Shown here piece after piece: positions 9,892-53,495 of a stretch of 64,000 nt of DNA. This DNA is from Flaccisagitta enflata (taxonomy: Eukaryota): the NCBI GenBank assembly GCA_965153355.1, contig OZ231126.1, forward strand, positions 9,796,001-9,860,000, in the 5' to 3' direction. Within the stretch, counting starts at the first letter, position 1; each line of letters opens with the position of its first letter. The notes below the pieces were generated by a model. That model worked only from the letters and a program-made list of their open reading frames with translations. It was not told where the DNA came from and did no database searches. Both the position numbers and the translations under genes were made by a program.

Positions 9892-9984
<93 letters not shown>

Positions 9985-12900: not shown

Positions 12901-13184
12901 GATGATCCGTTTGGGCTGTAGGGGGGGGTACCTTGGAAAGTGACATATAGCATTTACAAATCCGTCCGAATCTGTATGTGCTTTCATCAAGTCCATCCAG
13001 CAACCAAACTATCTTGGCTTGAGATCTCAAGAACATTTCTCTCAAATGCTCTATTTTCCTATCGTATTCTCCCTTGACAAACGCATATTGCTTCAAAAAG
13101 TTGGCAAAAAGGTCTTGATCACCATCAATCTTCTTGACGTCGATGACAGCTACGACAGAGGAACCGCAGAGATAATCACCTTCT
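8042..13184 (-). pseudogene. NACHT-gene partial duplicate C (no Walker A, internal deletion, interrupted by TIR element)
   Basis: ORFs 12818-13096 and 8042-9103 are near-identical to parts of the 14469-17520 gene; Walker B LLDGLDE present. Confidence 0.85.
9069..12974. mobile_element. Non-autonomous 3.9-kb TIR DNA transposon (Tc1/mariner-type, TA target)
   Basis: ~270-bp imperfect TIRs CAGATTCGGACGGATTTGTAAATGC.../...GCATTTACAAATCCGTCCGAATCTG, TA at 9067-68 and 12975-76. No transposase seen; nested (GA)n at 9899-9982 and an inverted-repeat AAAAAGCT-rich element at ~10674-11315. Confidence 0.85.
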
Positions 13185-13207
13185 GGTTTGTGTGATCTAT
13201 GCTGAAA

Positions 13208-14444: not shown

Positions 14445-14468
14445 TGGTTTGTGTGATCTGTGCTGAAA

Positions 14469-26102: not shown

Positions 26103-26900
26103 TTTTAGTTCTTTTATTTGTTTGTTCGTCTTTTTTCCTCGTCTGCTTTTTTGTTGTTTTTTTTCGTCGACCGATTGTAAATAAAAAGGGAATTTAAAAA
26201 GGATGATAATCGTAATTAATGAATGTCGCGAGAGGTGAAGTAATGGAAGAGGGGGAGAGAAACAAACCTCTTTCACTCAAGAGTGTAAAATCGAAACCGT
26301 TAGAAGAGGGCGGAGGGGTAGGGGGGAACGAAAATTGCTAGTTTTTTTTTTTAAGAAAAAACTTTGACCAGATCAGCAGAGAGTTAGTAGTAATGCCGAA
26401 TGTGAAAAAATAAGCCTTCGAACGCGACCGCACCAAAATCTCTCTAATGCGCGTGAGTTAGCCTTAAGCCTACAACTAAGGGAAGACTCGGAGAGGAAGA
26501 GGAACAGAGGACAATGCAATGACCGAGGTAGAACGAACAAACAATCGAACGAACGAACGAACGAACGAACGAACGAACGAGTGAAGAGGTAAAGGTGGGA
26601 AGGGGTGGAAAATCAAACATTACGTCGAAAATGCCAAGTTTTCGAGTGCTCGCGACGAAAGGGGGGGAGTTGGGACGATGCGGGAATAATAAGAAATATC
26701 AAAGTTACACAACGCGGGTTCATAAAAATCTGAACAGTATCTGGGTCCGCGACGGAAGGGGGTTAAAGATCACCAATTCTGTAAGATCGCTATGACCAAA
26801 AGATTGCTAACCCTGTAAGTTCGCCAAAACTATAAGTCTTTACATTTAGAGCCTCCATACAAAGTTTCATACAAATCCGTTGAAAAATGACAAAGTTATG

Positions 26901-27470
26901 TGAGGTTTTTGGGGACTGCCTACTATGGTATTTCTATGGAAGCTTGGAAGCAACCCACTACCCCCAAAAACTCTCCCCATTGTGCCCTGCATATTTGAAT
27001 GTACTAAATTCCTTTCCCCCTCATTTTGCCCCTTTGTGTGACTCTGTGCCTTGTAGGACTGTGTATTCAATGCCCCTTATCATTGTTGTGACCCGTTGCC
27101 TTACTGTTACATATTCCTGCTTCACATTCCTGTTATATACTCTGAACAGAGATCGCCTTTTTTGCCCTAGAACCTCACCCCAAAATGTATTCCCATTTTG
27201 TTTGTCCTCCACTGATAATATGTCTTCCTCTTCCTCACTCTCTCTGCCCAACTCCTATATAACCGGTCCCTCACCCAAGCTCAATGTTCTTTTTCTGTAC
27301 TACAATTGCTGTTACGCTTTTTGCTGAATGTTTCTATACTTCAACAAATTAAAACGTGTCTCCGCAATTACTTTGTCCTAAGAAAGGGAACCACCGCAAA
27401 CTAACATCCAGTGTAATTCAGTCACACCATAGTCTGTGTCATTTAGCTACGTTTAGCGACACAAACTTTA
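26901..27470 (+). repeat. 5' LTR
   Basis: TGAGG...CTTTA; same sequence as 50233-50802; TATATAA at 27256-62 and ATTAAA at 27348-53. Confidence 0.96.
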
Positions 27471-34800: not shown

Positions 34801-37800
34801 GAAAAGGGGGTATCGCTTCGCAGGGGTGATTCACTATTCCTGGGGGTAAAATTAGATCTATCCCAAGGAGGCACTGTCAGCTCGGGAGACGTGCTCTACA
34901 TAGAATTTCCCGAGGAGTATGAAAAGATGGGATTAAAGCCAACTGACCGGGTTGTTCAGATTTATCGCCTTAAGCTAAGGGGTGAAGTTTATGGGACGAA
35001 GGTATTTGTGGAATTCCCCAAAACAGCCGAAGTCGATATAATAAACTTACCCACTGACTCTCCTTTCGGCCACCTTTCTCCTTTATTGCCACCCGAACTC
35101 GAGGACGTTGCCAAAGTAAACGAGGCAAGGGTTCTCCACAATGTGTGTTTCGTTGAATCTGAAAGAGAAGCGGAAGAGTTGAGGGCTGGTAATCGGAAAA
35201 AGTGGCAGGCCCTTCATGACCTTTATTACGGGGCCAGTCCTGAGGAGTTGGCCGAATACTTATCAGCAAAAGGGCCAATCGACTTTAACTGCATTATCCT
35301 CTATCTCAAGAGAAGGCAACTATCTGCCGAGGAAAGGGAAGAGTTGAAGAAGGTTCGAAAGGAGAGAGCAGAATTTTGGACCTATGATGAGATTTTGACT
35401 CACTTTAAGGATCAAATTTCTAAAGTACCCGCTCAATTCAAACAAGACGTCATCAATTTGCTGTATGAAAGGAGGGGTGCCTTTGCGGGAAAATCCAGCC
35501 ACTTGAGGGTAGGGACAATAACCTGGTGTCTCGATGCTATTTATCCACGCGAATTGCAACTGCAAGTGCGTGCCAAACCCGTAAGCGGGCTGAAAAAGCT
35601 CATCACCAATCGCTTACAAAGGATAATGATGGATAGTGGGATCATTGAGCCGGCGAAGGGTAGGCCCGCAGCTTTACACAGGTTCCTTGTTGTACTAAAG
35701 CCTCAAGACAAAGTCAAAAAGCCAGTTGACAAGGCCTCTCTAGATGCCATGACAACGGCTGAGTTAGAAAAATGCTTTCGATGTGTCGTCGACTCGAGTA
35801 ACTTGTCATCTATGTTGTATAAGTCACCTCATCCCGACCCTCCCACCATTTTCCAAACATTGGGGAAAGTAGAATGCGACACTCTCAAAACTTGTGCTGA
35901 CCTCAAACGGGCATATGACCAAACCCGTGCTACAGAGGCTGCAAAGTTGTTGTTTGCATTTGAAACCCAGCTCGTTGGCATACCCCTTGCCGTTTTGAGT
36001 TCCATCCCCCAGGGTTGCCCGGAGGGATCTCGCATCAACCAACGCGTGAGTAGTCACGCGGTGGAGCGGCAAAATAACATACCTGCCAATCTCAGTTTTG
36101 ATGAGTTCAAGGTTGCGTATCGCAAACTTGACGATGACGAAATTGCTGCAGAAAAGCAATGTGCGTTGCGCCGGCGACGCGAAGAGAGAGCCCGGATGAT
36201 CGATCATCGAAGCGAAGGGAGAGAAAAGGATGATGAGGAGGAGTCCTCCTTCGAAAAGCAGGAGAATCGAGCGAAGAAGGAGAATTCCGAGGAAGGAGAG
36301 AAGAAGACGATCGGTCATCGGAAGTCGGTCAAGAGAGAGAGAGAGAGCGAGCATAATGGTATTGGTCGCGAGGTCTTTTTGGAGTCGCTCCAATTGCCAG
36401 TGACCACTGATCCTGACGCCCTCGATAACATGATTGTCAAAGGTTTGTCAACGGGCCCACCTGAGAAAAGGAGAAAGCTGATTTGTGAGAATTCAGCCCA
36501 TGTATACGCTGACGATATCATGGTGCAGTCTCCGACCGAAATTGACCGCATTAAAGAGCTTGAGATTGAGTCTAAAGCACTGCCCCGTCCTGCTCAAAAC
36601 GATAAGGAACTGCCTATCCTGCTACACTTGGCATTCCTCAATAGGGTACTATACTGCCTAGAGGAGGCCAATTTTTTGCTCAGTAGCACAAAAATCAACA
36701 TTCTGTGCCACCTGGAGGGTTTTGAGTACCTGGGCTTTAGCTTCAGGGGGAATATTATTTCCATAGCTCAAAAAACTATAAGTACTATCCAAGCCTTGCC
36801 AGACCCCAAAACCCTCAAGGAGACACAAAAAATCATCGGCATGACTGTCTATATAGGGCAGGTGATGCGCCATGGACGCATCATGACCGGTTTCCTCAGT
36901 GACAAGCTAAAGAAAGGCGTGACCTTCAAATTTACCGATGACGACAGGGAGAAATTCCAGAGGCTCAAAGACTTGTTATGTCAAGTTCATATGAAAGGGT
37001 ATCTTTACGCTTTAGACACCAATGTGAAAGACAAGACATTTATTTTGTACAGTGACTGGAGCTATGTAGTGCACAGCTCCAGTTCTTGCCTTCTTGTAAA
37101 ACTACACACCAAGGAGGGTACCACTGTCCTACCCGCTGTCTCTGACTCTCGCTCGCTCGTTGACTCTGTCCGCTCAAAAGGTTCGACCATCTGTGAGATG
37201 GCCGCCCTCGTAAGTTCACTCCAGCACCTTAGACCGATCCTCTTCCTTGCCCCGTTCATTTGCTACACCGACAACATTGCGCTCCAGTTCCTGATGAACC
37301 GGCGCTTTGCTACCAATGTGGCTTTGGACTCGACTGTGGCTCAGAGGCTGCTCCTATCGGTCAATGACCTATTCTTTCAATGTCGCTATGTGCCCTCTGA
37401 GCTACAACTCGCAGATGGACTGTCCAGGATCAAATTAGAGACAGGGAAGACCGTTGACCAACTCCTTACCAATTCAAATAAAATCACGGATTTCGACTAT
37501 GTCGAGCGTATGGTCAGACCAAACAAAGCGGACGAAAATGAGTCTCAGTTTCTAGAAAGGGCGGAAAGAAACATTGACATGATCCGCCGACTAGAGACCG
37601 AGGCCGGGGATACAAGGGGGGATTTGTACCAACTCTTCAGGAAAACCCACTTCAGTGTGAAAAACAAGGAAGTGCTCAGTCTGACCGACCGCCCGATCTC
37701 ACCTCTTGAAGAAGTTGACCCCCAGACCAAGCTTGAGACCGACGATAGTCCTCCACGGTCGATCGGTTTCTTTGATCAGGAAAATGAGGGCGGGCTAATG

Positions 37801-40539
37801 ACCGAGGCCGGCGGAGATGAGAGTGTGAAGGCCGACCGAACGGGAAAACGATCATCGCTAGACAGCGATGGTGGGAAGACCGATGACGATGATCGGTCAC
37901 GTGACCAGGCCGAAATCTGCAAAGGGGGAAATGACACACAGGATAATAAGGTGGTAAATGAGCTGAACTTTACCAAAATCACATCCCCGCGTGAGAAAAA
38001 AATCTCTCCACGCAAATCTACACCCAGTCACGCCCCCCTTGACAAAGAATCAATTGACAAAATGACACAGGATGAGTTGATTGATGTCTTTAACCAAAAG
38101 CCCATTATCCCCGATCATCAGCCCTCCGATTTTGACTCCCTTCCCATTAACCAACTTGAAGAGGAGGAAAACCGGATCGCAACTGATAAGTACCAAGAGA
38201 CCCCATACGAGTACCGAACGGACATTTTAGACATGCTTCTTCGCTCAAACACAAATGACCGATCAGGCCTAAGCACCAAAGGACAAAAGATCGCGAGACA
38301 AGACAGTCTTATGATCACCCGATACCCAGATTTAGTTGCCACTATCATCCATGACACCCCCGATGGTATTTTAAGCGATGGGTTTGGGCATGAACAAAGC
38401 AGCGTTCTGGATTATCTCTGTGAGATCAACTACATATTGCACACTACGGGCCCACAAGATCCTACTCCCCTCTTTGAAAGTTATGAAGACGCACATCGTT
38501 ACTTCAAAAGGGGGCGCTTAGCCGATGAATTTAGGGATCAATACAAATTTTGGATCGCATGTCAAACCCGAGATCTAGACATGCAGGTCTTACGCAAGTT
38601 GGTCAAAGGTGAGCTGTCCCTAGAAGATGACTCAGTTGACATAATTAGGAAAACGAGTCGTTTGGCTCATGTTCTGATCAATGACCTCGACTCACTATTT
38701 ATGTTCCAAGACCTTTTGTTCAAACTCGTTTTTCCCACTCGCGGGCAAAAGGCAAGGGCCCTTCTCATTCTCAGCCCCCAAGACTTGGGCAGGATCGCCC
38801 TTAGGCACCACGGGCTGGCTCACAGGGGCGGGTTATACACCTACACCATTCTAGCTAATCGCTACTACACCGTTAACATGTATCAGACCATCTTGGATCA
38901 AATCAAGGGGTGTAGTGTGTGTGCCGATTTCCACCTAAATAAAAAGAAATCCTACACTGCCCTTACCAACGTTCTGGACCTCTCGAGCATCTCCCAGATC
39001 AGTGTGGATTTGAAGGGACCCCTCGAAAGGGCCCCTACCACCCCCAGTAAGAAAAAGGGGAACCCTTGGGACGAGAAGCGCGTTAGAAAGTTCTGGATCC
39101 TGTGCATCGTGAATCCAATCACCGGCCTAAACCAGTTCTTTTATCTGCCGGACAAAAAGGCGTCAACTGTGGTCAGGTGTCTGTATGAAAAGTTCATACG
39201 CTTCCACTCAGGGATAACACACGTGCAACTTGACGAAGGCCCAGAATTTGCAAATGCGTGCCAGGCGGAACTGGCAAGCCTAATGAAGTTTTCCCTTAAG
39301 TTTACCTGCAAGGCAAACCCCAGGGCAAACAGAGGAGAGGGTTCCGTTCAGAAGCTGTCAAACTTATTAAAGGCTGTGTTACAAGGATCCGAGTTCAGAA
39401 TCAAGGACAAACTGACAGACCTGTCCATTATCTCCAACTCTGTATACTTCTCAGAGATAAGTGGGCGCGCCGCCAATGATGCCCATGGGGTCAGCAACGG
39501 CGACGCACTAGCCTACTCCCCTGCCATCATCTGTGGGAAGGAGGAATACAAACACAAGGGTCAGCACTGGACAGACGTCTCGGACTCGATGAGGGAAATC
39601 GTTAGACTGATAAGGGAACATTACAACTGCTTTATCACTCTCAAACGATCAAACTTACACACCTTCGAGTCACTCAATATCAAAAAGGGGGACGTGGTGT
39701 ACTTCAGGTCCTATTCTAAGGCCCACCCGGTCTCTATAGGTCTCAAATCGCTTTGTCCGTCCTGGAGTTTGGGCCGTGTGGAAACGATCTTATCCAGGTC
39801 CGCGGCCATAGTCAAAAACATACAGACGGACGCACGGGTACGTCGCCATATCAGCGATATTCACCCCATCTGGGACCAAGGATCATGGGCACTAACTACC
39901 AACTGGAAGAGTAATTTCGATTCTTACCAAACTGAGAAGGCTGGTCTTGACCTCAACGACTCGGTCGAGACGGCGAAGAGAAGAGACGACGATGCCATCA
40001 AAGCTCGATCCGCGAATCAGGCCAGTAGAGGCGAGGACAACCCCCCCGCTGGTCCGACCAAAGTGACCGACGGTCGCTCGCGAGATGAAAAGCTGTCGTT
40101 GAAGAATGACCGAGTGAGTAAATCCGATAAGTCCGTGAAATCCAGCAAAGGATCGAGGGCCGACCGTCCGAAGCACAGAGAGAGCGACGATCACAAAGTG
40201 AGTCCGAAACCGCGCACGCGACTTCGATCGAAGTATGATGGTGCGTCCGAAGATGAACAGAAAATGACCGAGGACGTGATGAGTAAGATCCGAAAGGCGA
40301 AGAAAAGCACAAAGTCTGTTTCTGAGCGAAAAAATCATGACGAGGGAGACGATTGGAGCATTAAGGGAAACAACGGCTCCCTCAAACGCAGATCGCGAAA
40401 GTCAAGCAATAGGGCATCGCGTTCATTTGACAGCGATGACCACGAGGATGAGGATAGTCAGGATAGTCTGCCTTCCAAAGACAATCGTCGTCGATCTAAG
40501 AGGCTGGCAAGAAAGCCTCGGGTCGACTACAGAGAGTAG
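28846..40539 (+). CDS. 3897-aa Gag-Pol polyprotein (long N-terminal extension, CA-like, CCHC, PR1, PR2, RT, RNase H, integrase)
   Basis: RRRGEQVGLWAFRLTEL Gag-like motif; CFLCGSDKHWAKDC (32863-32904); ADTGS (D at 33361); LDSGS (D at 34420); ADLKRAYDQ, PQG, YADD (36505); RNase H YSDW/EMAAL/YTDN/ADGLSR; integrase HHGLAH...CSVC, VDLKGP, LDEGPEF, RGEGSV. Confidence 0.96.
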   Translation: MEGDPWDGINKFLLAERKEIVEKFGFYYDRRYWFLVKPSTIRSGSFFPLGGYRSLGLKSRFVAPGETKLDKKPFDELKNFRSSQIFEIASKPRDSLNGPNVLYWVYGFFSFVPILRPCKICLRRNERNCDCDTLLVAFIEEFQEVVRQKQKNIHEPFTYDLRRNFNLRVAEGYDKEILPGPERLTDYYLEGPLILSDNIATKDGKLIPAKPQSRGVIEALKSVFSHKNAPDSSFSLPADSFDRNPNASLSVTLTNDSLNESSLATDSHTPRKSLCDEIHVASPHHPAGKPFTPDLSSPDQSTLTADDITVVQLHSDPTPTPDLTTQTSDPQSNEDPNLPVSDPVEPIDNPFKLTGLSADPLPGVSDLDPSVDPPESISTMSTITESVDTETGQKGEKEVCYPAAYLAFCFFCSEERMFKLGHCPKMGCGMPFRMVPSLKTDAILDIERYSPPFPARMLSESNDEREKYVCQALFNSDELKFENGLYVVGKNASDPLLINAARVLRNRGKPGNLDSFDVSGLSSDDVVTKEKTKFVIHSLQHNFNRQRLKEYDSYFNLDIKILNMIWNKGFTELGPVGEHDLPRGVYLSEFRNQVEKELTKGREVFTKIFDTEKYDHGLGFRYCAHKNEFSTFGEAGWEVVDKTKLWDQKTIPFLRSFNCGPRRLYLKLILDKFKDHTPEELDNMGLEPRNIELIRLEIQKAQEIDDKKLEFMRLNKLTRELAPIDGNHKTYEQYFEAILSKHLNKKILPPTASKADKEKMPGESAYEDFIDPEDIHDLLNFSYGFSAQTDKTRKAILKRGTTKHRNLPLTRDAPAEDHYDMTALEKKAHETLTEYNRSRGVDIDSIREIREKRDPYREPKNTYLKILNDHAEADRKSNPKHSTPIRKTVSIGKHGDDDDGDDDDSDDDDDKRSNKEDGKSDDRDKKTPDDRAKFDNDLNDTVNPFFAPKERPTSSKGLDSSRGETVGDRLLRLSGSTVEQTKPKEGEDKPDLGQGHHTSDDDEDDDHDRGGRGSGDRGRDDRGQDDRGRDDHEREHRKQSSRDNPRGGNGGGGYDGGGGGHGGDGDNGGNDRRGGRKPWEKGNSYPYDYSTNPTPSQKAEHHELTKRLKLLSKDAPEFSLKDDRSFRSFYCEWSFHFRFFLKLDEASLVYKFCTSFRDSELRFQVQQMSTAHPGIKVNALAAKIGATLGLESTQHYECQLQRASRRRGEQVGLWAFRLTELYNHSLPAKNFYEFVHTDLYRQQLFNLFCRGINNKYLVQEMYKNEITEIFAGVAFCQNLIVSDQVSEAAANFGKTNSSHSFSMADEVKLLTRKNRDFSDINALGYTDKKDYKKKKRNDNCFLCGSDKHWAKDCALSKYKDRKDEVSFIKVKKSPAEWRNEKKRKRAKERVNNLNLEVVEKSDSGSDSEDSQASEATDYRPTDSEGEAETGEINHIGDKANDSGSESESDEIAHMVNALNKMLGRRKGGKADDKTNKPKHKSNRIFTDGPSDVPWVTIQGLADFVADTGSSLSLLRPHEVPPSAKKIKVDESIEGADGEVIKLENKVDLYIDCTNKQYRLTDDNTKPLISFYICAETKCNLLSYFDIAKLGVIINDVNLGGKSDDDNDFDDDDECDIETVTYTIVDKTVTKTVTATVTANDSGHDSDDDSDSESDSKSSNQNHFDRLPQRERWIARQKSRRTVNIIVNNSDSDDDSDDDSDDDSDVSSQSIRTQCPSLEGKQTIRQTSKHTTNQDSSPTYLTDRGDLDKRNLVSHLTDVGRRNARKTDPMVIKSDRPLTPANDRPLERDRNADSLLLPHPLSLTAALKSKEKIEHKDIRSVSKRDVVNLVSGMLPFAKLRVFNKKNAPVTSGIYLQCLLDSGSTLCLLSKKWLDKSGLTFTPLPHTIHASSFTGNDINLLHKIQAYVDFGTGIKRPVTFFIFQGDSNYEGLLGYDCLKQNHVTLDAANDSFSIDGLAHPVHRFDLANQINALQSESINLEKIPLVIEKGVSLRRGDSLFLGVKLDLSQGGTVSSGDVLYIEFPEEYEKMGLKPTDRVVQIYRLKLRGEVYGTKVFVEFPKTAEVDIINLPTDSPFGHLSPLLPPELEDVAKVNEARVLHNVCFVESEREAEELRAGNRKKWQALHDLYYGASPEELAEYLSAKGPIDFNCIILYLKRRQLSAEEREELKKVRKERAEFWTYDEILTHFKDQISKVPAQFKQDVINLLYERRGAFAGKSSHLRVGTITWCLDAIYPRELQLQVRAKPVSGLKKLITNRLQRIMMDSGIIEPAKGRPAALHRFLVVLKPQDKVKKPVDKASLDAMTTAELEKCFRCVVDSSNLSSMLYKSPHPDPPTIFQTLGKVECDTLKTCADLKRAYDQTRATEAAKLLFAFETQLVGIPLAVLSSIPQGCPEGSRINQRVSSHAVERQNNIPANLSFDEFKVAYRKLDDDEIAAEKQCALRRRREERARMIDHRSEGREKDDEEESSFEKQENRAKKENSEEGEKKTIGHRKSVKRERESEHNGIGREVFLESLQLPVTTDPDALDNMIVKGLSTGPPEKRRKLICENSAHVYADDIMVQSPTEIDRIKELEIESKALPRPAQNDKELPILLHLAFLNRVLYCLEEANFLLSSTKINILCHLEGFEYLGFSFRGNIISIAQKTISTIQALPDPKTLKETQKIIGMTVYIGQVMRHGRIMTGFLSDKLKKGVTFKFTDDDREKFQRLKDLLCQVHMKGYLYALDTNVKDKTFILYSDWSYVVHSSSSCLLVKLHTKEGTTVLPAVSDSRSLVDSVRSKGSTICEMAALVSSLQHLRPILFLAPFICYTDNIALQFLMNRRFATNVALDSTVAQRLLLSVNDLFFQCRYVPSELQLADGLSRIKLETGKTVDQLLTNSNKITDFDYVERMVRPNKADENESQFLERAERNIDMIRRLETEAGDTRGDLYQLFRKTHFSVKNKEVLSLTDRPISPLEEVDPQTKLETDDSPPRSIGFFDQENEGGLMTEAGGDESVKADRTGKRSSLDSDGGKTDDDDRSRDQAEICKGGNDTQDNKVVNELNFTKITSPREKKISPRKSTPSHAPLDKESIDKMTQDELIDVFNQKPIIPDHQPSDFDSLPINQLEEEENRIATDKYQETPYEYRTDILDMLLRSNTNDRSGLSTKGQKIARQDSLMITRYPDLVATIIHDTPDGILSDGFGHEQSSVLDYLCEINYILHTTGPQDPTPLFESYEDAHRYFKRGRLADEFRDQYKFWIACQTRDLDMQVLRKLVKGELSLEDDSVDIIRKTSRLAHVLINDLDSLFMFQDLLFKLVFPTRGQKARALLILSPQDLGRIALRHHGLAHRGGLYTYTILANRYYTVNMYQTILDQIKGCSVCADFHLNKKKSYTALTNVLDLSSISQISVDLKGPLERAPTTPSKKKGNPWDEKRVRKFWILCIVNPITGLNQFFYLPDKKASTVVRCLYEKFIRFHSGITHVQLDEGPEFANACQAELASLMKFSLKFTCKANPRANRGEGSVQKLSNLLKAVLQGSEFRIKDKLTDLSIISNSVYFSEISGRAANDAHGVSNGDALAYSPAIICGKEEYKHKGQHWTDVSDSMREIVRLIREHYNCFITLKRSNLHTFESLNIKKGDVVYFRSYSKAHPVSIGLKSLCPSWSLGRVETILSRSAAIVKNIQTDARVRRHISDIHPIWDQGSWALTTNWKSNFDSYQTEKAGLDLNDSVETAKRRDDDAIKARSANQASRGEDNPPAGPTKVTDGRSRDEKLSLKNDRVSKSDKSVKSSKGSRADRPKHRESDDHKVSPKPRTRLRSKYDGASEDEQKMTEDVMSKIRKAKKSTKSVSERKNHDEGDDWSIKGNNGSLKRRSRKSSNRASRSFDSDDHEDEDSQDSLPSKDNRRRSKRLARKPRVDYRE

Positions 40540-41337: not shown

Positions 41338-41904
41338 ATGGCCGACAACAACAACAACAACAACAACGAACAACAGCGTCAACAACAACAAATCATCACT
41401 GAATGCTCGCCAACATTCTGTGCATGCGATCCCAATTTGGATCGCTGCCAACAAGGATTTTCAAACAACAGATCCTTAAATTGGGCTGAGTCAGCCCATA
41501 ATTTTCATCTATATCGCGTTCAACAACGAATTGACGCGTCAGTACAAAATGCCTACCATGAGGAGTCCACTTCCAACATCAGAAGACACCTCATGGCTAG
41601 CCGTTTCACAACCGAGCAAAATCCCGCTTCCATGTGGGGACGGTACCAAAGAAACGCGCGGGTAGCTCGAGAAAACTCAATGTTGTCCAGTCGAAGACCG
41701 ACCAACACTGCCTCTCGCCCCTTCGGCATTTTGGTACCGGAGCAGGCTGCCGAAAGGCCCTTATTACATCTAGCAGCTCTGCAAGGCCAAGACCATCTGG
41801 CCAAAGACCATGAACTCGTCTGTCGCCACGAAATTGGCTATTGCATTTCGGGCGACTCAGACAGCAATCATTCATTCGAACAATCACGCAAAAGACAAAA
41901 ATAA
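41338..41904 (+). CDS. Element-internal 188-aa ORF, unknown function
   Basis: ATG in AAAATGG context; N/Q-rich start, CSPTFCACDPNLDRC and HELVCRHEIGYC Cys/His clusters; no recognised family. Confidence 0.55.
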   Translation: MADNNNNNNNEQQRQQQQIITECSPTFCACDPNLDRCQQGFSNNRSLNWAESAHNFHLYRVQQRIDASVQNAYHEESTSNIRRHLMASRFTTEQNPASMWGRYQRNARVARENSMLSSRRPTNTASRPFGILVPEQAAERPLLHLAALQGQDHLAKDHELVCRHEIGYCISGDSDSNHSFEQSRKRQK

Positions 41905-41978
41905 TCACTTGTTGTAGCATCTGTAAATATCGTTGTACTAGCATTGATGATAATCTTTGTCGATGTAGATATCGTTCA

Positions 41979-43289
41979 CTAACGTTCATGAATAAATAAA
42001 CCCAACTTAAACCAACTGAAGTGTTTAACTTTACAATAGATTGACCGTTCGTCCTCTCACCTAAAAGCTTGGTGGACGGATTTGAGAGCGTGCTGGCAGG
42101 CTGAACCGATGGCCAAATTAACGTCAGAACACCCGATGCATGCGTAAGGAAGACCTTTAGAAATATAACAAAATTTCCAAACGAAACAATCTTGCATAGT
42201 AATTTTAGGCTGCAATATAATCTACCTAATTTACCACTACTTACCACTATAATAATCGGCTGGGTAGATTTCCCACACTGACGGTCCGACCAGAGCGATG
42301 TGTTCGACGTAAAATTTGATCGCACAAAAAACGAGATCCTCGTAGTAAGCAATCCCGATTATCATGAGAAGCACCATGATCCCTGGCACGACCGGGTCGA
42401 TGGTGATGAGTGTGACCACGCAATAACCCCCAATGACACCAAGGAGGGTTTTGCCATGCTCTGCGAATGAATGAATGAATGAATAAGTGAATGAATGAGT
42501 GAATAAATGAATGAATAATATGAATGAATGAATGAATGAATGAGTGAATAAGTAAGTGAATGAATAAATGAATGGATAAGTGAGCTAAGGAATGAATAAG
42601 TGAACGAATAAATGAACGAGTGAATGACCGAATGAATGAGTGAATGAACGATAAATGAATGAATAAATGAACGAATAAATGAATGAATGAGTGAACGAAT
42701 GAATGAATGAATGAACGAATGAGCGCATGAATGATAGGTGATCAAATGAATGATTAAGAACGAATCCTGCCTGAAGAGATGAAGCGAATCAGTTCCAAAA
42801 TTAGAACGTAAGCGGTGAACTGGCCCAGAGGATACTGCTTGAGACGGAAGTTCCACCAAATAGCATTCAAACGGGGAAACGATAGCAGGGTTTCTGATAA
42901 AGATTTACGAGGATTTGGCATGTAAAACTATATATATATCAATTCTAGGCCGATCAGAATTCACATAAAACGACAAAGCACCGCAGAATCTCACCCGTGT
43001 CGATTTCGTCCTCCTCGTCTTTTTCTTCTTCGTCCGACGTGTACATGGAACTGTCGTCGTCGTCGTCGTTGTCGCCGTCGTCGTTTTCGTTGTTGCCATC
43101 ATCCACTCGGCGACGGACGCGTCGTCCTTGGCCGTCGCCGCCGTCACCAACGCTTTCACCATCATTCAAACGACGGATTCGTCCGCCACCACCGTTGTCG
43201 TTGTCAATCGCGTAATATCCCTCCGCCACAACGTTCCTGTCACCAGACCCGCTAGTTGACGACACGTTAGCATCACTTGAATCCTCCAT
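41979..43289 (-). CDS. Antisense spliced element gene B, 254 aa: acidic N-terminus plus hydrophobic region; exons 43289-42995, 42893-42771, 42460-42245, 42154-42061, 42015-41979
   Basis: Five exons join in frame (765 nt incl. stop); one intron needs a GC donor (CAG|GCAGG at 42770), the rest are GT-AG. Confidence 0.65.
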
Positions 43290-44029
43290 GTCGACTTATG
43301 TCCGATTTCTGATAAATAGTAAGATTTCTTTTAGCGAGCAAAAAATTCTTTTTTGGGCGAGATTTTTGTAGAAAAATAAACGGTCCACAGATTAAGTGAC
43401 TGACCGGGCTGGGGGGAATTGACTAAATGAGCAACAGGGGGGAAGAAGAGCTGGGAAGAAGAACATAAAATTTTTTAAATTTCAGGAAGAGCAGCCCTTA
43501 CCTCTTGACTCATCGCTGGATGAGTTGCGTGGCCGCCTTCCCACACCCTTGTCTCCTCCCATCACCGGAAGAGGCTCAGGGCAATACCACTTAAGAATCA
43601 CTTAAGAGTCACTCAAGATTCAGAGTCAGTGAATCGATCGAACAATCGTGTCGAGCAGTTTGTTTTTGGAATGTTGCTCAAGTAGTCAATACATTCTGCC
43701 AGTTTGGTTCTGTCTGAAAAGTTAATTGAAACATATATATATATATATATATAAAAAAAACTACAGGAGGTGGCCTGACTGGCCAACGGCTCCCGTCTAT
43801 CTACTCTCTCTCTCTTTCTCTCTTTCTCTCTTTCTCTCTTTCTCTCTCTCTCAATTTCAATCATGATTCAATCATCTTTATCATCCTCAATCGTATTCAA
43901 TCATCTTTTTCTTCCGTCAAACTTCAATCATTTTCATTATCATCGTCATTTTCAGTCATCTTTTCAAGTCTCTCTTTTCCTCGTCAGTCCATCTTTTCTT
44001 CTTTCTTTTTCTCCTCTTCCTCCTCTCCT

Positions 44030-45531
44030 TTAGACGGGGGTCTCGCGGCCCATCTGGTCGCTGTCGCCGCCGTCGTTGTTGTCGTCGTCGCTGACGTGAC
44101 TGAGGGTGGGCGGCGCCGGAAGCCTCTTGGCCGCCGCCGCCTCGAGGTCGCGCCTCGCCACGTCGCCTCCCACGAGGTTGGCGAGGATCCCATCGGTCGT
44201 ACTATTGAATAGAGATATCAAAATATATAATTCCTGACCAGGGCAGGCTAGATAAAATGACCTCGCCCCCCCACTCATCCACTCACCTCATCGAGTAAGT
44301 GTTGGAGGAAGCGGCCGAGGATCTGCCAAAGAAATGAGATCGCCATAAGCACAGATAAGAGTGACCATCGGGTCTCACCCTCACACTCCAACAAGCCACT
44401 TATTTTCCTACTCACCTCCACAATAATACCCGCTCCCACACGGACCGGGGGTGGCTGCCCCTCCTTCGATAACAGCGAATCACTGAAAATGGGGATTTAA
44501 GGTCAAACTCAGACTAGGAAGTCATCATTCAAATTGTAGGCATGATTTGGTTAACACTCACAGAATACACTTTGGTGAACTTACTCTCTGCTGCGGTCAC
44601 CCCCGAGGCCAAAATGATGGCCAGCATCGCAACCGCGATCAGGATATAACTGTAAAAAGAGAAAAGCCCCTCTTAACACCCATTCATGACTTTCTAAGGT
44701 CTCTTGTTTGTTGAGCAAATTCTCAAAGAGACCATAAAACAGGTATGCGACGTTGTCGACTCTTCTGGATGTCGATAACTATCAATTTTGATAGACTTAA
44801 GATCATTTGAACCTAATTGACCTTTCTCAGCATTGTCTACATTTAAAGATGGTACTGTTCGAATTAGCCATGTAAGTAAGTTCTTTACCCTAATCGCCTT
44901 GTCTCTTCAGAGATTGTTATCTGTGTCAGTCCGGTGTGAGTTATGTTTGCTAATATTTCTCCTGAGACATGACAAAATATTTACAACCATATGCAAATGA
45001 GATTCAAGCGTGCACCTTAAAATTTAGCAATCAAAACTTACGCCCAAGTAGGGAGCGCCGAGGCCGGGGCTGCCGGTGGATCCTGCTCGGGGGGGGTGGC
45101 GGTGGTGTTGGCGCCTACCAACACCTCCATCACCATCGTCGCCGCCGTTGTTGTCGCCCCCAGACAACGCCTCGCGAGGATCGCCGGGTCTCTGTTTAGG
45201 ACATAAATGAATATTCCTTAATATCTTTATCTTTTTAACATTCTTTAACATTCTTTAACATTTTTTAACATCTTCTTAACATTCTTTAACATTCCTTAAC
45301 ATTCTTTAACATCCTCTAACATCGTCTAAAACATTTTAATATTCCTTACTATGCTGACCGACCGACTGACATGACCAACTAAAATCCAAATATTCCACCA
45401 TCAGACCGACTGACCGACTTTACTCACCTAGAGCCATAAGATGAGGCAGCCAACCGGAGACAATTGACTTCTACTGCCGACAGTGACGACCGACCGACGG
45501 ACGCCATGACTGACGTGACGTTGATGAACAT
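44030..45531 (-). CDS. Antisense spliced element gene A, 197-aa single-pass membrane protein; exons 45531-45428, 45191-45042, 44649-44585, 44482-44416, 44322-44287, 44201-44030
   Basis: Five introns all with GT(A/G)AGT donors and YAG acceptors, phases consistent (594 nt incl. stop); TM WAYILIAVAMLAIILASGVTAA then IRCYRRR; C-terminus ETPV. Confidence 0.85.
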
Positions 45532-45619
45532 GACTGCTTACGACGACTTTTTGACCGACGAACTGACGCGCTGACAAGTCCTTAGGCCCGACGTAGATTA
45601 AAATTCACAACACTTCCGT

Positions 45620-45895
45620 CCGACCAACCGACTTGCCGACTAATAAAATGAACGAGACTCGCCGACGATCGACTGACTTTTGCCGACTGATAAAATGAAC
45701 GAGACTCGCCGACGACCGACGGACTTTGGCCGACTGATTAAAATTAAAAGAGACTTGCCGACGACTGACTGACTTTAGCCGACTAGATAAAACTGGAAGA
45801 CGCGCCGACGCACTGACGGACCGATGCCGACGTAAAATAAATTAAAATCTCTGGACTCGCCGACGAGACTAACAGACTGTCCGACGATAAAATTA
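45620..45895. repeat. Degenerate ~47-bp tandem repeats inside the element
   Basis: About six copies of GCCGACT(A/G)ATAAAATGAACGAGACTCGCCGACG..., just upstream of antisense gene A. Confidence 0.8.
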
Positions 45896-46364
45896 GGAAT
45901 AAAAACTCTAGGACTTAAAGCACGTAACCTGCAAAGAGGAAAAGAAGTGAGAAGGAATAAAACCCTCAACTTAGGACCGCCTTTTTGACACTGACGATCC
46001 TCAAAATTCTTCTCACTTTCAAACATAAACAAATCAAGCCTTGAGGGCTTACGAGACTGAGCTCTCAAGAGGGGTGGGTTTTTTCTTAGTCAACATGTCG
46101 ACGTTCTTTTCTTACCACCCGACAAAAATATCAAGCAAAGCAATGGTACACTAGTGAGGGTAGAGTGGTAGGACCTGCAAAAAATGATAAGGCATGAGCT
46201 TGGGTTCAGGCATGAACGCTGCCCATTTAAAATTGGACGCTCAGGATTATCATTACTTTACCCGCTGGTGTGGGGTTTTTTCAGTCATGGTTTTCACCCA
46301 ATAGTAAAAAGACTAGGCTTAGAATTGTGCTTGAACAATCACCCAAATCACTAGGCTTGGAATT

Positions 46365-48887
46365 GTGCCCCAACAATCACCCAAATCTCAAGATGCGTTG
46401 AAACTACTCATCTTAACAACCACTTCTCTGTTCTCCCCTCCTCTCTCCGCCCCTGACTGTTCACTTCGTGTGTGTTCTCTCTGTCCGATGTCTGGCCCAC
46501 AAATCTGTCAATCTTACAGAGCGAGGAGAGAAGAGGCGAGAACGAACGCAGAAGTCCTCAAGCGCGTGCTCTTTCTAATATTCTTCTTCAAGATTGTTCA
46601 ACCGAGTGCTGTCACTATTAACATCCCTGACCCTCGGGCTCCCTGCATTAGTTTAGAAATGGCCCTGCCCATTGTCAAAATACAAAATTCACCCCCCTCG
46701 ACTCTCGATATGAGCTTTGATTTTGATATAAAGACCCTGTATTCTCAAAGGTACGGGCAAAAGGCCCCCACTAGTGATAATCATAAAGAAGTGTTTAAAT
46801 GCGCCACTCAGGTTGGGGAAGAAATATCCAAATTGATAGACTCTTTCATTTTACGTGTCATTGACTTGATTGAACTCAGACAGGAATCTTATTTGACCGA
46901 TGGGGAAAATTACAATGACGCGGACAAACAGACCAACAAACCTCGCCGTCGCGAAACCAGAAGTGGGATGAATCCTCGCTCGAACAGATCATCTCATGGT
47001 TTGTCCGAGGGAGAAAAATCTCATCTTCGAGAAGCGATAGAGCTGACAAATGAACAGTGGTCGTTTTCTGACCACTGGCTTGACGAACAGATTAGGAGCG
47101 ACCTCTCGGGGGGGACAAATTCAACTGAGTTTGGTGACATCAAAATTAGGAACAAAAGGGATCCCGCGACATTCATAAGTATTGTCATATCTCTTATCGC
47201 GTTGACAGCTACGGCGTCAACCAGTCTGTTCCTCGGCGCGCGTCTGGAAAAACTGGTTGACTATGTAGACTCATTAAGCAAAGCCGTTGAAGGTGATTGG
47301 CAATCAATTCAAGTAGGATTCAAAAATCTGATTTTATTAAAGGATGGATATGGTTCCATGGCTGCCGGCGCTCATTACATGAGTCAAACCATCCGGCGCC
47401 TACTAGAATATAATTTATGTCACATACAACAAACTAGACTCTTTTTCGAGATGAGAGCGATTGCCAACCGCCTTGACGGCATTTTTGAAAGCTTGGTATT
47501 AGGAAAGTTCAGCACTAAGATTCTCCCTCTACCACTCCTTAAGGAAATTTTCTCCCAGAGTTCGATCGCCGATGATGTTTTGAGCAAAGCTGTTCCGACC
47601 TCGTTCTATCAAGGGGCTAGTCTGTCTGTCCTCTCTGCCGATCGAGCTAAAAAGAGCGTCCGTCTAATATTTGTCGCACCACGCATCGAGCGAGAGCCGA
47701 GTTATCGAGTTTTGAAAGTACACTCTGTTTCATCAACTATATCCGTGAATGGCCGCATCTTTGACCGAGTTTTCTCTTTCGATGCTGACAAGATTGCTAT
47801 CCCGATCGATCTCTACGAAAAACATCACGATGATATGATCTTATCTGCAGCGGAGGTGCAGCAATTACGCATCCCGACCGAGTGTAGCTTTACCAACGGT
47901 CTGTTTGGATGTAGGAATTTTCTCTCTCTCCCAAGTCAGGTTTCATCGTGTCTCGCAGCTGTATTCGCTAGAGATTGGCCGAAGATGCAGTCCCAGTGTC
48001 GGATCAGAATGATCCCTCAGGCCCATCATCACCCAGTGTCCACTAGTTCAGGTTCCACGGGGATGTTACTTAGCTGCGTTTCTACTTACCGTCTGTACGG
48101 AATTGATCACACAAAATCAAAACACTACCAGAGAGAGGATTTAACCAAGATGGCCACCCGTGACGCATCAACTTCTTTGTGCGTCTGGGTGCCTTTACAC
48201 TTTAGTAAAATTCAAATTTTGGACGATCAAGGAAATAGACTAGATGAAATTGAACAGGATACCAAACTTATGATCAGGAATGGGTTGGTAAGAGACATAA
48301 CTGATTACGAAACTAAACATTTCCACTATTTCCAACGACAAGTTACAATGGACAACATGAGTCTTCTCAACTTTACTGGTCATTACGAGGACATTAATTC
48401 ACATTGGGGAAATATTGGCAAGCATGATCTGCCCGTTTTTGATATGAATGAAGAGCGTAAGATTTTCCTTGAGATTGGACTGGCCGTTGTAGTTGCGTTC
48501 ATCCTATGTTTGTATTTGGCCAAACTTGCGATGTGTCTGAGACGAAGGTACGCCCGTCCAACTGCCGGCCAGGCTGGTAGAGCCCGAGCTCAAATCACTT
48601 ATGCCCGCTCCGCCTCTCCGACGGTTACTCTTAACCTCCCACCAGCCTTGCCCCCGCCAAATCCTAACCGCCAAAACGATTCCCAAGATGATGATCTAAC
48701 CGAACCCAAGGATCGTCGCCCACGAGGCTTGAATCCCCCCTCGCCGACCAGTCAAGTGAGCTTTGTCGAAGATTGCAGCGGTTGTCCCGATCGCGATCCA
48801 ATCTTTGACCCCCGCGATTTTGTTGGTCGCGAGAGTCATCCTCCACAGACGCTTCCTCCCAAACCAGCGCGTGTGCAGACCACCTAA
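46365..48887 (+). CDS. env: Envelope glycoprotein, class I fusion-protein architecture (first ATG 46488)
   Basis: Hydrophobic VLFLIFFFKIV, furin-type RNKR (47148-59) followed by hydrophobic DPATFISIVISLIALTATASTSLFLG, heptad-like LEKLVDYVDSLSKAV, Cys-rich ectodomain, TM IFLEIGLAVVVAFILCLYLA (~48462-48521), Pro-rich tail. Confidence 0.88.
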   Translation: MPQQSPKSQDALKLLILTTTSLFSPPLSAPDCSLRVCSLCPMSGPQICQSYRARREEARTNAEVLKRVLFLIFFFKIVQPSAVTINIPDPRAPCISLEMALPIVKIQNSPPSTLDMSFDFDIKTLYSQRYGQKAPTSDNHKEVFKCATQVGEEISKLIDSFILRVIDLIELRQESYLTDGENYNDADKQTNKPRRRETRSGMNPRSNRSSHGLSEGEKSHLREAIELTNEQWSFSDHWLDEQIRSDLSGGTNSTEFGDIKIRNKRDPATFISIVISLIALTATASTSLFLGARLEKLVDYVDSLSKAVEGDWQSIQVGFKNLILLKDGYGSMAAGAHYMSQTIRRLLEYNLCHIQQTRLFFEMRAIANRLDGIFESLVLGKFSTKILPLPLLKEIFSQSSIADDVLSKAVPTSFYQGASLSVLSADRAKKSVRLIFVAPRIEREPSYRVLKVHSVSSTISVNGRIFDRVFSFDADKIAIPIDLYEKHHDDMILSAAEVQQLRIPTECSFTNGLFGCRNFLSLPSQVSSCLAAVFARDWPKMQSQCRIRMIPQAHHHPVSTSSGSTGMLLSCVSTYRLYGIDHTKSKHYQREDLTKMATRDASTSLCVWVPLHFSKIQILDDQGNRLDEIEQDTKLMIRNGLVRDITDYETKHFHYFQRQVTMDNMSLLNFTGHYEDINSHWGNIGKHDLPVFDMNEERKIFLEIGLAVVVAFILCLYLAKLAMCLRRRYARPTAGQAGRARAQITYARSASPTVTLNLPPALPPPNPNRQNDSQDDDLTEPKDRRPRGLNPPSPTSQVSFVEDCSGCPDRDPIFDPRDFVGRESHPPQTLPPKPARVQTT

Positions 48888-50215: not shown

Positions 50216-50232
50216 AAGGAATTGGGGGGATA
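50216..50232 (+). promoter_or_regulatory. Polypurine tract
   Basis: AAGGAATTGGGGGGA-TA immediately before the 3' LTR. Confidence 0.75.
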
Positions 50233-50802
50233 TGAGGTTTTTGGGGACTGCCTACTATGGTATTTCTATGGAAGCTTGGAAGCAACCCACTACCCCCAAA
50301 AACTCTCCCCATTGTGCCCTGCATATTTGAATGTACTAAATTCCTTTCCCCCTCATTTTGCCCCTTTGTGTGACTCTGTGCCTTGTAGGACTGTGTATTC
50401 AATGCCCCTTATCATTGTTGTGACCCGTTGCCTTACTGTTACATATTCCTGCTTCACATTCCTGTTATATACTCTGAACAGAGATCGCCTTTTTTGCCCT
50501 AGAACCTCACCCCAAAATGTATTCCCATTTTGTTTGTCCTCCACTGATAATATGTCTTCCTCTTCCTCACTCTCTCTGCCCAACTCCTATATAACCGGTC
50601 CCTCACCCAAGCTCAATGTTCTTTTTCTGTACTACAATTGCTGTTACGCTTTTTGCTGAATGTTTCTATACTTCAACAAATTAAAACGTGTCTCCGCAAT
50701 TACTTTGTCCTAAGAAAGGGAACCACCGCAAACTAACATCCAGTGTAATTCAGTCACACCATAGTCTGTGTCATTTAGCTACGTTTAGCGACACAAACTT
50801 TA
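50233..50802 (+). repeat. 3' LTR
   Basis: 570 bp, no differences from the 5' LTR seen by eye. Confidence 0.96.
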
Positions 50803-53495
50803 TATGCACGTTTTTCACTTTTAGGCTAGTAGGGTGGTTTGGTGGTAGGCTGGTTTAGATAAATAGTGTGCGTATGTTGAGTTCTTCCATTTAGAGACTC
50901 CATACCAAGTTTCAAACAATTTGGTTGAAAAATGTCCAATTTAAGTAAGTTTTTTCTTTTAGGCCGATAAGCTGGTTGGGTGGTAGGTCGGTTTGGCCGA
51001 TTAGCATGCTCAAATGCATATAAATCATATACATATGTTGAGGCCTTCCATTTAGAGACTCCATACCAAATTTCAGCCAAATCGGTTGAAAAATGCCAAA
51101 GTTATGCACGTTTATCACTTTTTGGTTGGTAGGCTGGTTGGGTGGTAGGCTGGTTTAACAGGATAAATAGTTTGCATATGCTGAGTCCTTCCATTTAGAG
51201 ACTCCATACCAAGTTTCAACCAAATCAGTTGAAAAATGACAAAGTTACGCAAGTTTTTCACTTTTAGGCCGGTTGGCTGGTTGGGTGGTAGGTCGGTTTG
51301 GCCGGTTAGCATGCTCAAATGCATATAAATCATATACATATGTTGAGGCCTTCCATTTAGAGACTCCATACCAAATTTCAACCAAATCGGTTGAAAAATG
51401 CCAAAGTTATGCACGTTTTTCACTTTTAGGCCGGTAGGCTGGTTGGGTGGTAGGCTGGTTTGACAGGATAAATAGTGCGCATATGTTGAGTACTTCCATT
51501 TAGAGACCCCATACCAAGTTTCAACCAAATTAGTTGAAAAATGACAAAGTTATGCAAGTTTTTCACTTTTAGGCCGGTTGGCTGGTTGGGTGGTAGGTTG
51601 GTTTGGCCGGTTAGCATGCTCAAATGCATATAAATCATATACATATGTTGAGTCCTTCCATTTAGAGACTCCATACCAAATTTCAGCCAAATCGGTTGAA
51701 AAATGCCAAAGTTATGCACGTTTTTCACTTTTAGGCCGGTAGGCTGGTTGGGCCGGTTGGGTTGGTCGGATCACAAAAATCGGATAGGATGTAAAGCGCC
51801 TTAACCTAGTACAACTTCCCACCAAATATGAACCAAATCGGTCAAAGCATAAAAAAGTTATCCATTTTTTAAAATCCGTCACGACGACGACGACGACAAC
51901 GACGACGACGACGACACCCACCCGCCTTGAATTATAGTCCGCGTCGGAATGATATTCCGTCGCGGACAAAAAGGGAAAGATCACGAGAGTCGATCACGAA
52001 AAGTAGGTTGGAAAAACCGTAATTAACATCGCGGTAATGCGATTTTTATACCGGGCGCCGAATCTACCATCTACACACACATCATTTGACTGAAAACGAT
52101 AGAAAAAGTCATAAAGACGAGATTTGTTAAAATATGTAAAATGATAGGCATAATTTCTTCTCTCTCGCCTTTCTTTAACAAGCCGGTAAAGAAGGGAAGT
52201 CCATTTTCAAAAAAAGGTTTCTTTTGATCATTTCGATATCCTATCTGCAGGTACCGGTAGAAGCAAATAATAAATGTTCTTTTTTAATAATACATTTATC
52301 TCAGCCAATAAGTATGAAAAGAAGCCCTGTGAAGGCATATCGATAAGAACGGATCAATAATCCACCCGCTTCTTTGGAAAACGACCGCCGCGCTATCTCA
52401 ATTCTCAATCTATGAATACATGTAGCTCAAGATCACAGGAATGGAACTGTACGAGTGTAATGAACAGAACAAAGCGGAAGTTTTGAAATTTGACGCAGAA
52501 AAGAGGAACCCCTTACAAAAATGATGAACGCGAATGAAAATTGAGCGAACAAGCATGGAGCAAAGAGAGAAATGATTATGGAGTATGGAGCAAACTGAGA
52601 ATAAAGAGATTTTAAGACACATGAATAAAGCGAGCGAACAAGCATGGAGCAAAGAAGGAAATGATTATGGAGCATGGAGCAAAGTGAGAATATAGAGATT
52701 TTAAGAGACACATGAATAAAGCGAGCGAGCAAGCATGGAGCAAAGAGAGAAATGAGCATGGAGTATGGAGCAAACTGAGAATAAAGAGATTTTAAGAGAA
52801 ACATAAACAAAGCGAGCGCAAGGAACGAAAGGAGAAACGCTCATGAAATCAACCAAGAATGGAATGACAAAAGAGATGAGCGTCGGTCAAACAAGGAGAG
52901 AGTGAGTCGAATGCGCGTGGAGCAAAAAACGAATAGACATCGAGCGAGTTGAATGAGCGAGGAAGGAAACAAGGAAAATGAAAAAGATGAGACACTGTCC
53001 TTTTTTTTCACCAAGTTTCTGGACAACAGAGACGCCCAATCGGCAAATGATGTCACGAACATTCAGTTCATTCGAGACTCGCTTAAATCTTAGATTAAGT
53101 AAACGACGCATGATGAAACCGAGTAAGAATTCGTTTGAGGACTAAATGGACAAGTTCCGGCTTGCTCATCGCTTTATCATCGTCACATTTCATTTCATTG
53201 AGGTCGCGATGGAAGGAAGATGCCAATATCTTCGATTAACAACCTCATCTCGGTCCATGTCTTCGCCAAATCGTTTTTCTCCATGAACTTCTCCTTTGGT
53301 TTACCCATTCCTTCTCAACTTCGTTACCATCACTTCAAATTCATCCCGTCGCTTTCCCTTTGGATTTTTACCGCCATTTCCAACTAGGACCGCGTCTCCT
53401 TCACCATCCCTGATTCTCGTCATCTTCCATTCCCTCGGCCATCATCATCATCATCGTCATCATCATCGTCGTCGTCGTCATCATCTCTTTCTCAT

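Follow-up and report, generated by a model that had tools for sequence, protein, structure and literature searches.

The 64,000-nt stretch of Flaccisagitta enflata DNA analysed here (assembly GCA_965153355.1, contig OZ231126.1, positions 9,796,001 to 9,860,000 of the forward strand; henceforth the window, in whose own coordinates all positions are given) contains a 23.9-kb long terminal repeat (LTR) retroelement on the plus strand (26901-50802). The pol part of this element ends at 40539 and its env gene starts at 46488, and the 5.8-kb spacer between the two harbours, on the strand opposite to gag-pol, a candidate gene of six exons. A sequence-only reading of the window had placed this gene in antisense orientation inside a retroelement, and its location on the minus strand, between pol and env and flanked by two identical LTRs, bears out that placement. 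The plus strand over the same stretch is devoid of a comparable open reading frame (ORF). We think it probable, from the sequence features described below, that this is a real, coding, intron-bearing cargo gene located between pol and env of a Ty3/gypsy-like endogenous retrovirus that has been active recently and encodes an F-type envelope protein (F-env).

Exon structure, base composition and predicted product

Direct reading of the minus strand of 43800-45800 revealed that the six exons, when joined, form a continuous frame of 594 nt, that is 197 codons plus TAA (45531-44030; Table 1), exactly as the sequence-only reading had described them. All five donors conform to GT[AG]AGT (in order: GTGAGT, GTAAGT, GTAAGT, GTGAGT and GTGAGT), the acceptors are CAG in four cases and TAG in one, and a pyrimidine-rich tract precedes each of them. 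The introns measure 236, 392, 102, 93 and 85 nt, and retention of any single one closes the frame after 1-19 codons. An in-frame TAA is located 9 nt 5' of the ATG, and codon 9 is a second in-frame ATG in the same context as the first. An extra consensus donor on the minus strand, GTGAGT at 44561, lies 23 nt into intron 3; its use would cause a frameshift. The 47-bp repeats upstream of the ATG (45633-45792) are a possible promoter or enhancer region of the gene. Terminal direct or inverted repeats were not found around the gene, and a nested transposon as its carrier is unlikely.

Table 1. Coordinates of the antisense gene and of its carrier element in the window
Feature	Position	Strand	Details
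Exon 1	45428-45531	-	104 nt coding from ATG; donor GTGAGT at 45427
Exon 2	45042-45191	-	150 nt, GC 0.71; acceptor CAG, donor GTAAGT
Exon 2 product	45042-45191	-	T/A/P-rich piece of predicted N-terminal domain, one N-x-T sequon
Exon 3	44585-44649	-	65 nt; predicted transmembrane segment, residues 84-105
Exon 4	44416-44482	-	67 nt; basic juxtamembrane stretch, one Cys
Exon 5	44287-44322	-	36 nt; Ser-rich linker
Exon 6	44030-44201	-	172 nt including TAA, GC 0.70, GC at codon position 3 0.90
Exon 6 product	44030-44201	-	predicted cytoplasmic tail: acidic cluster, C-terminal ETPV
47-bp tandem repeat, 3.3 copies	45633-45792		100-260 nt upstream of antisense ATG
Target-site duplication TATG	26897-26900 and 50803-50806		same four bases after 3' LTR
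5' LTR, 570 bp, begins TG	26901-27470	+	blastn direct repeat
gag-pol ORF, 3897 amino acids, one frame	28846-40539	+	order protease, reverse transcriptase, RNase H, integrase
env, F-type class I fusion glycoprotein	46488-48887	+	first ATG 46488 in 840-codon frame
Polypurine tract	50218-50229	+	3 nt before 3' LTR, direct reading
3' LTR, equal to 5' LTR	50233-50802	+	blastn direct repeat

The minus strand of the 64-kb window has 19 sites with the donor motif GT[AG]AGT, 6 of which are clustered within 1.14 kb (44286-45427). A mechanical spliced-ORF finder, which assembles ATG-to-stop chains from GT[AG]AGT donors and YAG acceptors preceded by at least 9 pyrimidines in 15 positions, with intron length limited to 60-500 nt and a minimum exon length of 30 nt, returned the antisense gene as the only chain with five introns on either strand of the window. 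Apart from it, multi-intron chains were limited to trivial ones within the gag-pol ORF of 11.7 kb and to the same exons read in another frame. When strands were shuffled in blocks of 500 nt, five introns were reached in 1 of 4372 and four or more in 16. Thus, a chance origin of the five-intron chain is unlikely, as the sequence-only reading had concluded from the donors.

Base composition likewise fits coding exons. The GC content of the exons ranges from 0.54 to 0.71 as compared to 0.31-0.47 for the introns, and in the proposed frame GC amounts to 0.58, 0.57 and 0.77 at codon positions 1, 2 and 3 (GC1 to GC3), respectively. Exon by exon, position 3 is the GC maximum in all six cases, with one tie. 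This phasing is important because two frames stay open in the GC-rich exons. The alternative frame over exons 2-6 (208 codons, Arg-rich) was rejected as a GC artefact: its GC peak falls on codon position 1 and its start is located inside intron 1.

The predicted product begins with an N-terminal part of 83 residues that is rich in Thr, Ala and Pro, carries a net charge of 0 and contains two N-x-T sequons. Residue 2 is not Gly, and the best 9-residue hydropathy mean within the first 30 residues is 1.6. A hydrophobic segment follows (residues 84-105, Kyte-Doolittle mean over 19 residues 2.56), which coincides with exon 3, and the next 15 residues are basic and Cys-containing with a net charge of +4, in agreement with the membrane protein with polybasic juxtamembrane motif noticed earlier. 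As the basic stretch comes after the transmembrane segment, the topology is predicted to be N-terminus outside and C-terminus inside. The tail of 92 residues is probably disordered; it comprises the Ser-rich linker and the acidic cluster and ends with ETPV, whose sequence fits the pattern of a class I PDZ ligand (S/T-x-hydrophobic at a free C-terminus). We estimate that a few percent of proteins would carry such a 3-residue pattern by chance. As a whole, the layout appears to resemble that of a transmembrane adaptor, a likeness that may extend to cellular adaptor proteins and to viral PDZ-ligand proteins.

Sister copies, rival explanations and origin

To compare the gene with its relatives, an 82-codon ORF, in which the final 25 codons of intron 5 are followed by exon 6, was used as query. 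It matched eight clusters at 85-98% identity, corresponding to 26 distinct sequences with 56 contig occurrences in public assemblies; one of these sequences does not differ from that of the window and is present on 14 contigs. The contigs were identified by their protein match, and not every one of them need lie inside an element. Variability is distributed unevenly over the alignment: 21 of the 25 intron-derived columns vary as compared to 16 of the 56 exon-derived ones (Fisher 6e-6, a value that takes the columns as independent even though they are phylogenetically dependent), and the mean pairwise identity is 0.70 in the intron part versus 0.91 in the exon part. Invariance starts with the pair of codons in which the predicted acceptor AG of exon 6 resides. 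The position of the stop is common to all 26 sisters, 13 of which differ by a one-codon indel inside exon 6. The PDZ-binding-type tail claimed earlier is kept as a sequence pattern in 25 of the 26 sisters, which end in ETPV, and the remaining one has EIPV. Upstream of exon 6, two copies carry unrelated sequence and three groups differ in their ATG starts.

In all 26 sisters, exon 6 is still directly preceded by the 3' end of intron 5. Therefore, the sister contigs are not spliced mRNA, and an unspliced intron 5 is what is expected of antisense introns that go through retrotransposition. The sequence-only reading had argued that such introns survive this process; in line with this idea, the five introns are present in an element whose LTRs are identical. 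Frameshifts and lost splice sites in sister copies, which had been named as evidence that would speak against the gene, were absent from exon 6 and its acceptor in the 26 sisters retrieved, a set from which copies with a frameshift in exon 6 would be missing.

Several points nevertheless weigh against a spliced coding gene. The sister evidence is at the protein level and is limited to exon 6 together with its acceptor, and the search is blind to copies that are frameshifted in exon 6, so that the figure of 26 intact sequences out of 26 is biased. Exon 6 is absent from proteins of 99-2000 amino acids in a collection of 5.8 billion proteins, that is, no spliced product was found there, although the unspliced ORF is present many times; this is a weak negative, as the contigs may represent DNA or plus-strand RNA of the element. 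A search for sequencing runs returned five marine metatranscriptomes with small shares (0.06-0.07) and one raw poly(A) run, and these are no evidence for expression or habitat. Searches with exon 6 among longer proteins and metagenome contigs yielded no homologue beyond the near-identical copies, its alignment had no match among viral contigs, and neither exon 2 nor exon 6 matches a Pfam family at E values up to 10. The N-terminus lacks a clear signal peptide, and AATAAA does not occur on the minus strand of 42500-46400, which includes 1.5 kb below the stop codon. A second frame is also open over exons 2-6; since this is due to the GC richness of the exons, openness alone is weak evidence. Finally, exons 2 and 6 each contain a (GAC/AAC/GGC)n-like stretch of 20-35 nt, which is read in unlike frames in the two exons and recurs at 43051-43096, and the coding sequence is therefore partly of low complexity. 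A 1-kb duplication linking exons 2 and 6 is unlikely, as their common sequence is limited to this microsatellite-like stretch.

How do other explanations fare against these data? The most viable of them, albeit an unlikely one, holds that the gene is a passenger, i.e. a piece of a host gene that was transduced with its introns in antisense orientation through read-through or recombination and that may be spliced and translated with no benefit to the element. Codon usage speaks for a foreign source, GC3 being 0.77 in the antisense gene as compared to 0.52 in gag-pol and 0.46 in env, and a layout of one exon per domain, including a transmembrane exon, is typical of cellular genes. Moreover, there are documented cases in which extra ORFs were captured between pol and env or the LTR (PMC6431247, PMC7264820, PMC5408684). 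However, exon 6 is kept across three diverged sister groups and the adjoining intron is not, which suggests selection, unless some of the sister sequences represent the host gene itself. A cellular homologue was not found in the searches of longer proteins, metagenome contigs and Pfam mentioned above, and blastn and tblastn detected neither a second copy of the element nor a paralogue of the gene in the window.

The same observations bear on the origin of a coding cargo gene, which may have arisen either by antisense transduction of a host gene or by growth from the GC-rich low-complexity DNA of the spacer itself. The contrast in GC3 and the exon-per-domain layout would point to a cellular gene captured in reverse; the low-complexity content would allow growth in place.

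Rather improbable, in our judgement, is a spliced antisense non-coding RNA that would regulate the element, by feeding double-stranded RNA or PIWI-interacting RNA (piRNA) pathways or by transcriptional interference, the ORF being incidental to the GC-rich exons. The two open frames over exons 2-6 are compatible with such an RNA, and there are precedents in the spliced antisense transcripts AS1 and AS2 of bovine leukaemia virus, whose coding capacity is doubtful (PMC10186651), and in the non-coding antisense RNAs of micropia (PMC7264820). The GC maximum at codon position 3 in every exon, the strong transmembrane segment that matches one exon exactly, and the stop and C-terminal motif that the sisters have in common while differing by a one-codon indel all speak against an incidental ORF.

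We give still less credence to the possibility that only the last block is a gene, namely an unspliced ORF of 74-84 codons (44278-44030 in the window) for a soluble acidic peptide, with the upstream exons as a chance chain. Indeed, all 26 sisters were called as ATG-started ORFs of 66-114 amino acids with one common stop, and the spliced form was not found in the protein collection. However, the N-terminal part of this peptide would be its least conserved portion, with varying columns, differing starts and unrelated upstream sequence in two copies, conservation begins at the predicted acceptor, and a chain of five introns rarely arises by chance. The least probable explanation, that the motifs and the frame are accidents of GC-rich low-complexity islands and that exon 6 is kept as a cis-acting RNA or DNA block, can draw on the recurrence of the microsatellite-like exon stretches in a third block outside the gene model and on the missing canonical poly(A) signal, but has to contend with the shuffling result, the clustered donors, the phased GC3 in every exon, the coincidence of the conservation edge with the acceptor, and the preserved stop and last four residues.

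The carrier element and the rest of the window

The LTRs of the carrier were detected as a blastn match of 573 nt at 99.8% identity; the lone mismatch, at 26900, belongs to the flank, and the LTRs themselves are identical at 570 of 570 positions. Because of this identity, the element must have retrotransposed recently, and it is very young. Its insertion target was a 305-bp tandem repeat, of which 3.1 copies are left on the 3' side (50803-51752; also 26860-26900). A neighbouring unit of this repeat, at 51539, runs uninterrupted across the insertion point and provides an empty-site paralogue. A sequence starting with TGG at about 27473 has the appearance of a primer-binding site.

Pfam comparisons of the gag-pol product yielded RVT_1 (3.3e-6), RT_RNaseH (2.9e-4), Integrase_H2C2 (4.7e-4) and Asp_protease_2 (9e-4), all below the curated cut-offs, and no family apart from these weak matches. 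Among PDB sequences, it matched prototype foamy virus integrase (4e-5) and Ty3 reverse transcriptase/RNase H (5e-4). Relatives of pol were not found among proteins of 2143-6820 amino acids. The frame is far beyond the usual length, with about 1,850 residues before the protease; one CCHC knuckle is found in this region, as are long runs of low complexity that are acidic or rich in Gly/Arg.

From its first ATG, the env product has a signal-like N-terminus, followed by an RNKR cleavage site with a hydrophobic peptide behind it and by a C-terminal membrane anchor. Its relatives number 53 in a library of 1.84 billion proteins, in at least 53 representative clusters, and reside on public-assembly contigs of 0.7-7.2 kb. 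The RxKR site and the hydrophobic peptide are conserved in the aligned relatives, and the 7 invariant columns among 24 aligned members are occupied by five Cys, one Pro and an Arg that belongs to the cleavage site. An AlphaFold2 model of the protein (mean predicted local distance difference test score 66.7) was compared to the PDB with Foldseek, and all matches listed are pneumo- or paramyxovirus F proteins (best E 8.9e-13), albeit at low TM-scores of 0.2-0.47. A profile search against the PDB gave a borderline match to F0 of human metapneumovirus (E 0.024), and the Atlas lead was to Baculo_F/Fusion_gly clusters (0.95). No Pfam match was obtained for env even at E 10; env, pol and the env alignment had no match among viral contigs, and env had none among metagenome contigs. 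Taken together, domain order, sequence matches and the structural model portray the carrier as an endogenous retrovirus of the Ty3/gypsy-like type that is giant in size, very young and equipped with an F-env. Its internal region of 22.8 kb exceeds the limit of 20 kb used for 'giant' elements in PMC6431247.

The pol-env spacer contains additional open frames. On the plus strand, an ORF of 188 codons (41338-41904) opens with a poly-Asn/Gln run, and on the minus strand two ORFs of 248 and 165 codons lie within 41606-42859, the shorter of which crosses a (GAAT)n array (42465-42734). Neither the 188-codon nor the 248-codon ORF has a Pfam match. A third GC-rich block (42905-43295, minus strand) is found downstream of the antisense gene. 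Exons 2 and 6 have the (GAC/AAC/GGC)n-like stretch in common with this block, whose open frames are Asp/Asn/Gly-rich or Thr-rich. The block may serve as an alternative 3' exon, represent a second antisense ORF or be a mere repeat. Exact look-up of ten further ORFs from the region showed nine of them to be absent from the protein collection. The one present, an 83-codon ORF between the antisense gene and env (45778-46026, minus strand), belongs to a cluster of 15 variants that differ mainly at start and end; it looks non-genic, yet shows that the spacer is also well kept there among close copies.

Outside the element, neighbouring minus-strand ORFs encode EH domains (3.1e-16 and 6e-9) and an SDE2 C-terminal domain (6.4e-28). 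The introns of the EH-domain gene are ordinary GT-AG introns with one GC-AG exception, and their signals are of the same kind as those of the antisense gene. On the minus strand of 8018-16886, among ORFs beside the SDE2-like one, blocks of 170-300 nt are repeated two to three times at 98-100% identity and at spacings of 1237, 2362 and 5166 nt, suggesting recent local segmental duplication. A long satellite with an 11-bp period occupies 3374-5200 (163 overlapping 300-nt registers); in this region, AT skew is about -0.5, and GC skew reaches 0.45 in 4001-6000.

Proposed mechanism and comparison with known systems

If the antisense gene is indeed a coding cargo gene, it might operate as follows. 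Host RNA polymerase II would start on the minus strand upstream of 45531, possibly at the 47-bp repeats, the spliceosome would take out the five GT-AG introns, and the 594-nt frame would be translated into a single-pass membrane protein of 197 amino acids. On the packaged plus-strand RNA the same introns would read CT...AC, and they would be passed on to every new copy. That is, the introns would outlast cycles of retrotransposition because the plus-strand genomic RNA is unspliceable at these sites; survival of introns in antisense orientation follows an established logic. The tail, in turn, may recruit host PDZ or sorting proteins in the membranes travelled by Env and particles, a membrane-adaptor role that is suggested by its sequence and that we put forward tentatively and with low confidence. 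A more far-reaching scenario, which we regard as doubtful, would be that giant env-bearing retroviruses of marine invertebrates are 'complex' ones that keep a selected five-intron antisense gene with its own promoter. Its product, an adaptor with acidic cluster and PDZ-ligand tail, would hijack host polarity and sorting and route Env and particles from soma to germline, and intron-containing genes of cellular type could be ferried intact by being carried backwards.

Small viral proteins with C-terminal class I PDZ motifs include HPV E6, HTLV-1 Tax and the coronavirus E protein, the latter of which is also a small single-pass membrane protein. The predicted protein shares with them the C-terminal S/T-x-V, and has no sequence relationship to any of them. 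Fusion-associated small transmembrane (FAST) proteins of reoviruses and Vpu of HIV-1, to which the sequence-only reading had likened it, share its small size, its single membrane segment and the basic cluster on the inner side of the membrane. However, their ectodomain is very short or lacking and FAST proteins carry an N-terminal myristate or hydrophobic patch, whereas here 83 residues precede the membrane segment and Gly2 is absent. Both analogies fail: the anchor at residues 84-105 is far from the extreme N-terminal location seen in Vpu-type proteins, and a second fusogen is not needed because the element already encodes a complete F-type fusion glycoprotein. The roles in cell-to-cell spread or in manipulation of junctions or immunity that the sequence-only reading had proposed are speculative.

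The literature searched, supplements and subscription journals aside, yielded no precedent for a metazoan LTR element with env that carries an antisense gene with introns. F-env-bearing Ty3/gypsy elements, termed errantiviruses, have been described across metazoans (PMC13524379), and the carrier resembles them in having LTRs, a gag-pol with the order protease, reverse transcriptase, RNase H and integrase, as well as a separate env of F type that comprises a furin site, a fusion peptide and an anchor. Unlike these elements, it is far larger (23.9 kb, with a gag-pol of 3897 amino acids) and possesses the 5.8-kb spacer. Supplements aside, the main text of PMC13524379 is free of the word 'antisense', and in the available text of a review on Drosophila errantiviruses it is used for piRNAs only. 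Rotifer elements have extra ORFs between pol and env as well, in sense orientation (PMC5408684).

Antisense ORFs downstream of pol are known from plant Ty3/gypsy elements, i.e. gene23 of Grande, RIRE2, and aORF-3R/TRP28 of Retand (PMC7264820, PMC11963269). As in the present case, they reside in an unusually long post-pol region with tandem-repeat arrays, and Grande has its own promoter upstream of the ORF. In contrast to the carrier described here, the plant elements have no F-type env, and those of their products whose nature is known are nuclear or bind DNA. The word 'intron' is absent from the main text of PMC11963269, as is 'introns' from the available text of PMC7264820, and exons 2 and 6 of the antisense gene did not match the TRP28 domain in the Pfam search.

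Among retroviruses, the antisense protein ASP of HIV-1 is likewise an antisense-encoded membrane protein (PMC10186651). However, ASP overlaps env, is unspliced and is described as having two membrane segments, whereas the gene reported here overlaps no sense gene, has five introns and encodes one predicted segment. A further parallel is offered by deltaretroviruses, whose minus-strand genes (HBZ of HTLV-1; APH-2, APH-3 and APH-4 of HTLV-2, HTLV-3 and HTLV-4) are expressed from spliced antisense transcripts (PMC10186651). The common feature is a minus-strand coding gene whose intron is carried through replication, in the present case as judged from DNA sequence. Deltaretroviral antisense transcripts start in the 3' LTR, undergo a single splice and encode nuclear regulators such as the basic leucine zipper factor HBZ, whereas the gene in the window has five introns, lies between pol and env, thus upstream of env on the plus strand, and would encode a membrane protein with no sequence similarity to these regulators. 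So far, antisense genes with one splice are known from a few complex vertebrate retroviruses, and unspliced antisense ORFs from some plant retrotransposons. If the reading as a coding cargo gene is true, accessory-gene complexity would reach a very different branch of retroelements. The gene would also provide a natural demonstration that antisense orientation carries intron-containing cargo through reverse transcription, and a concrete candidate for the means by which such elements deal with membranes or cell polarity in transmission.

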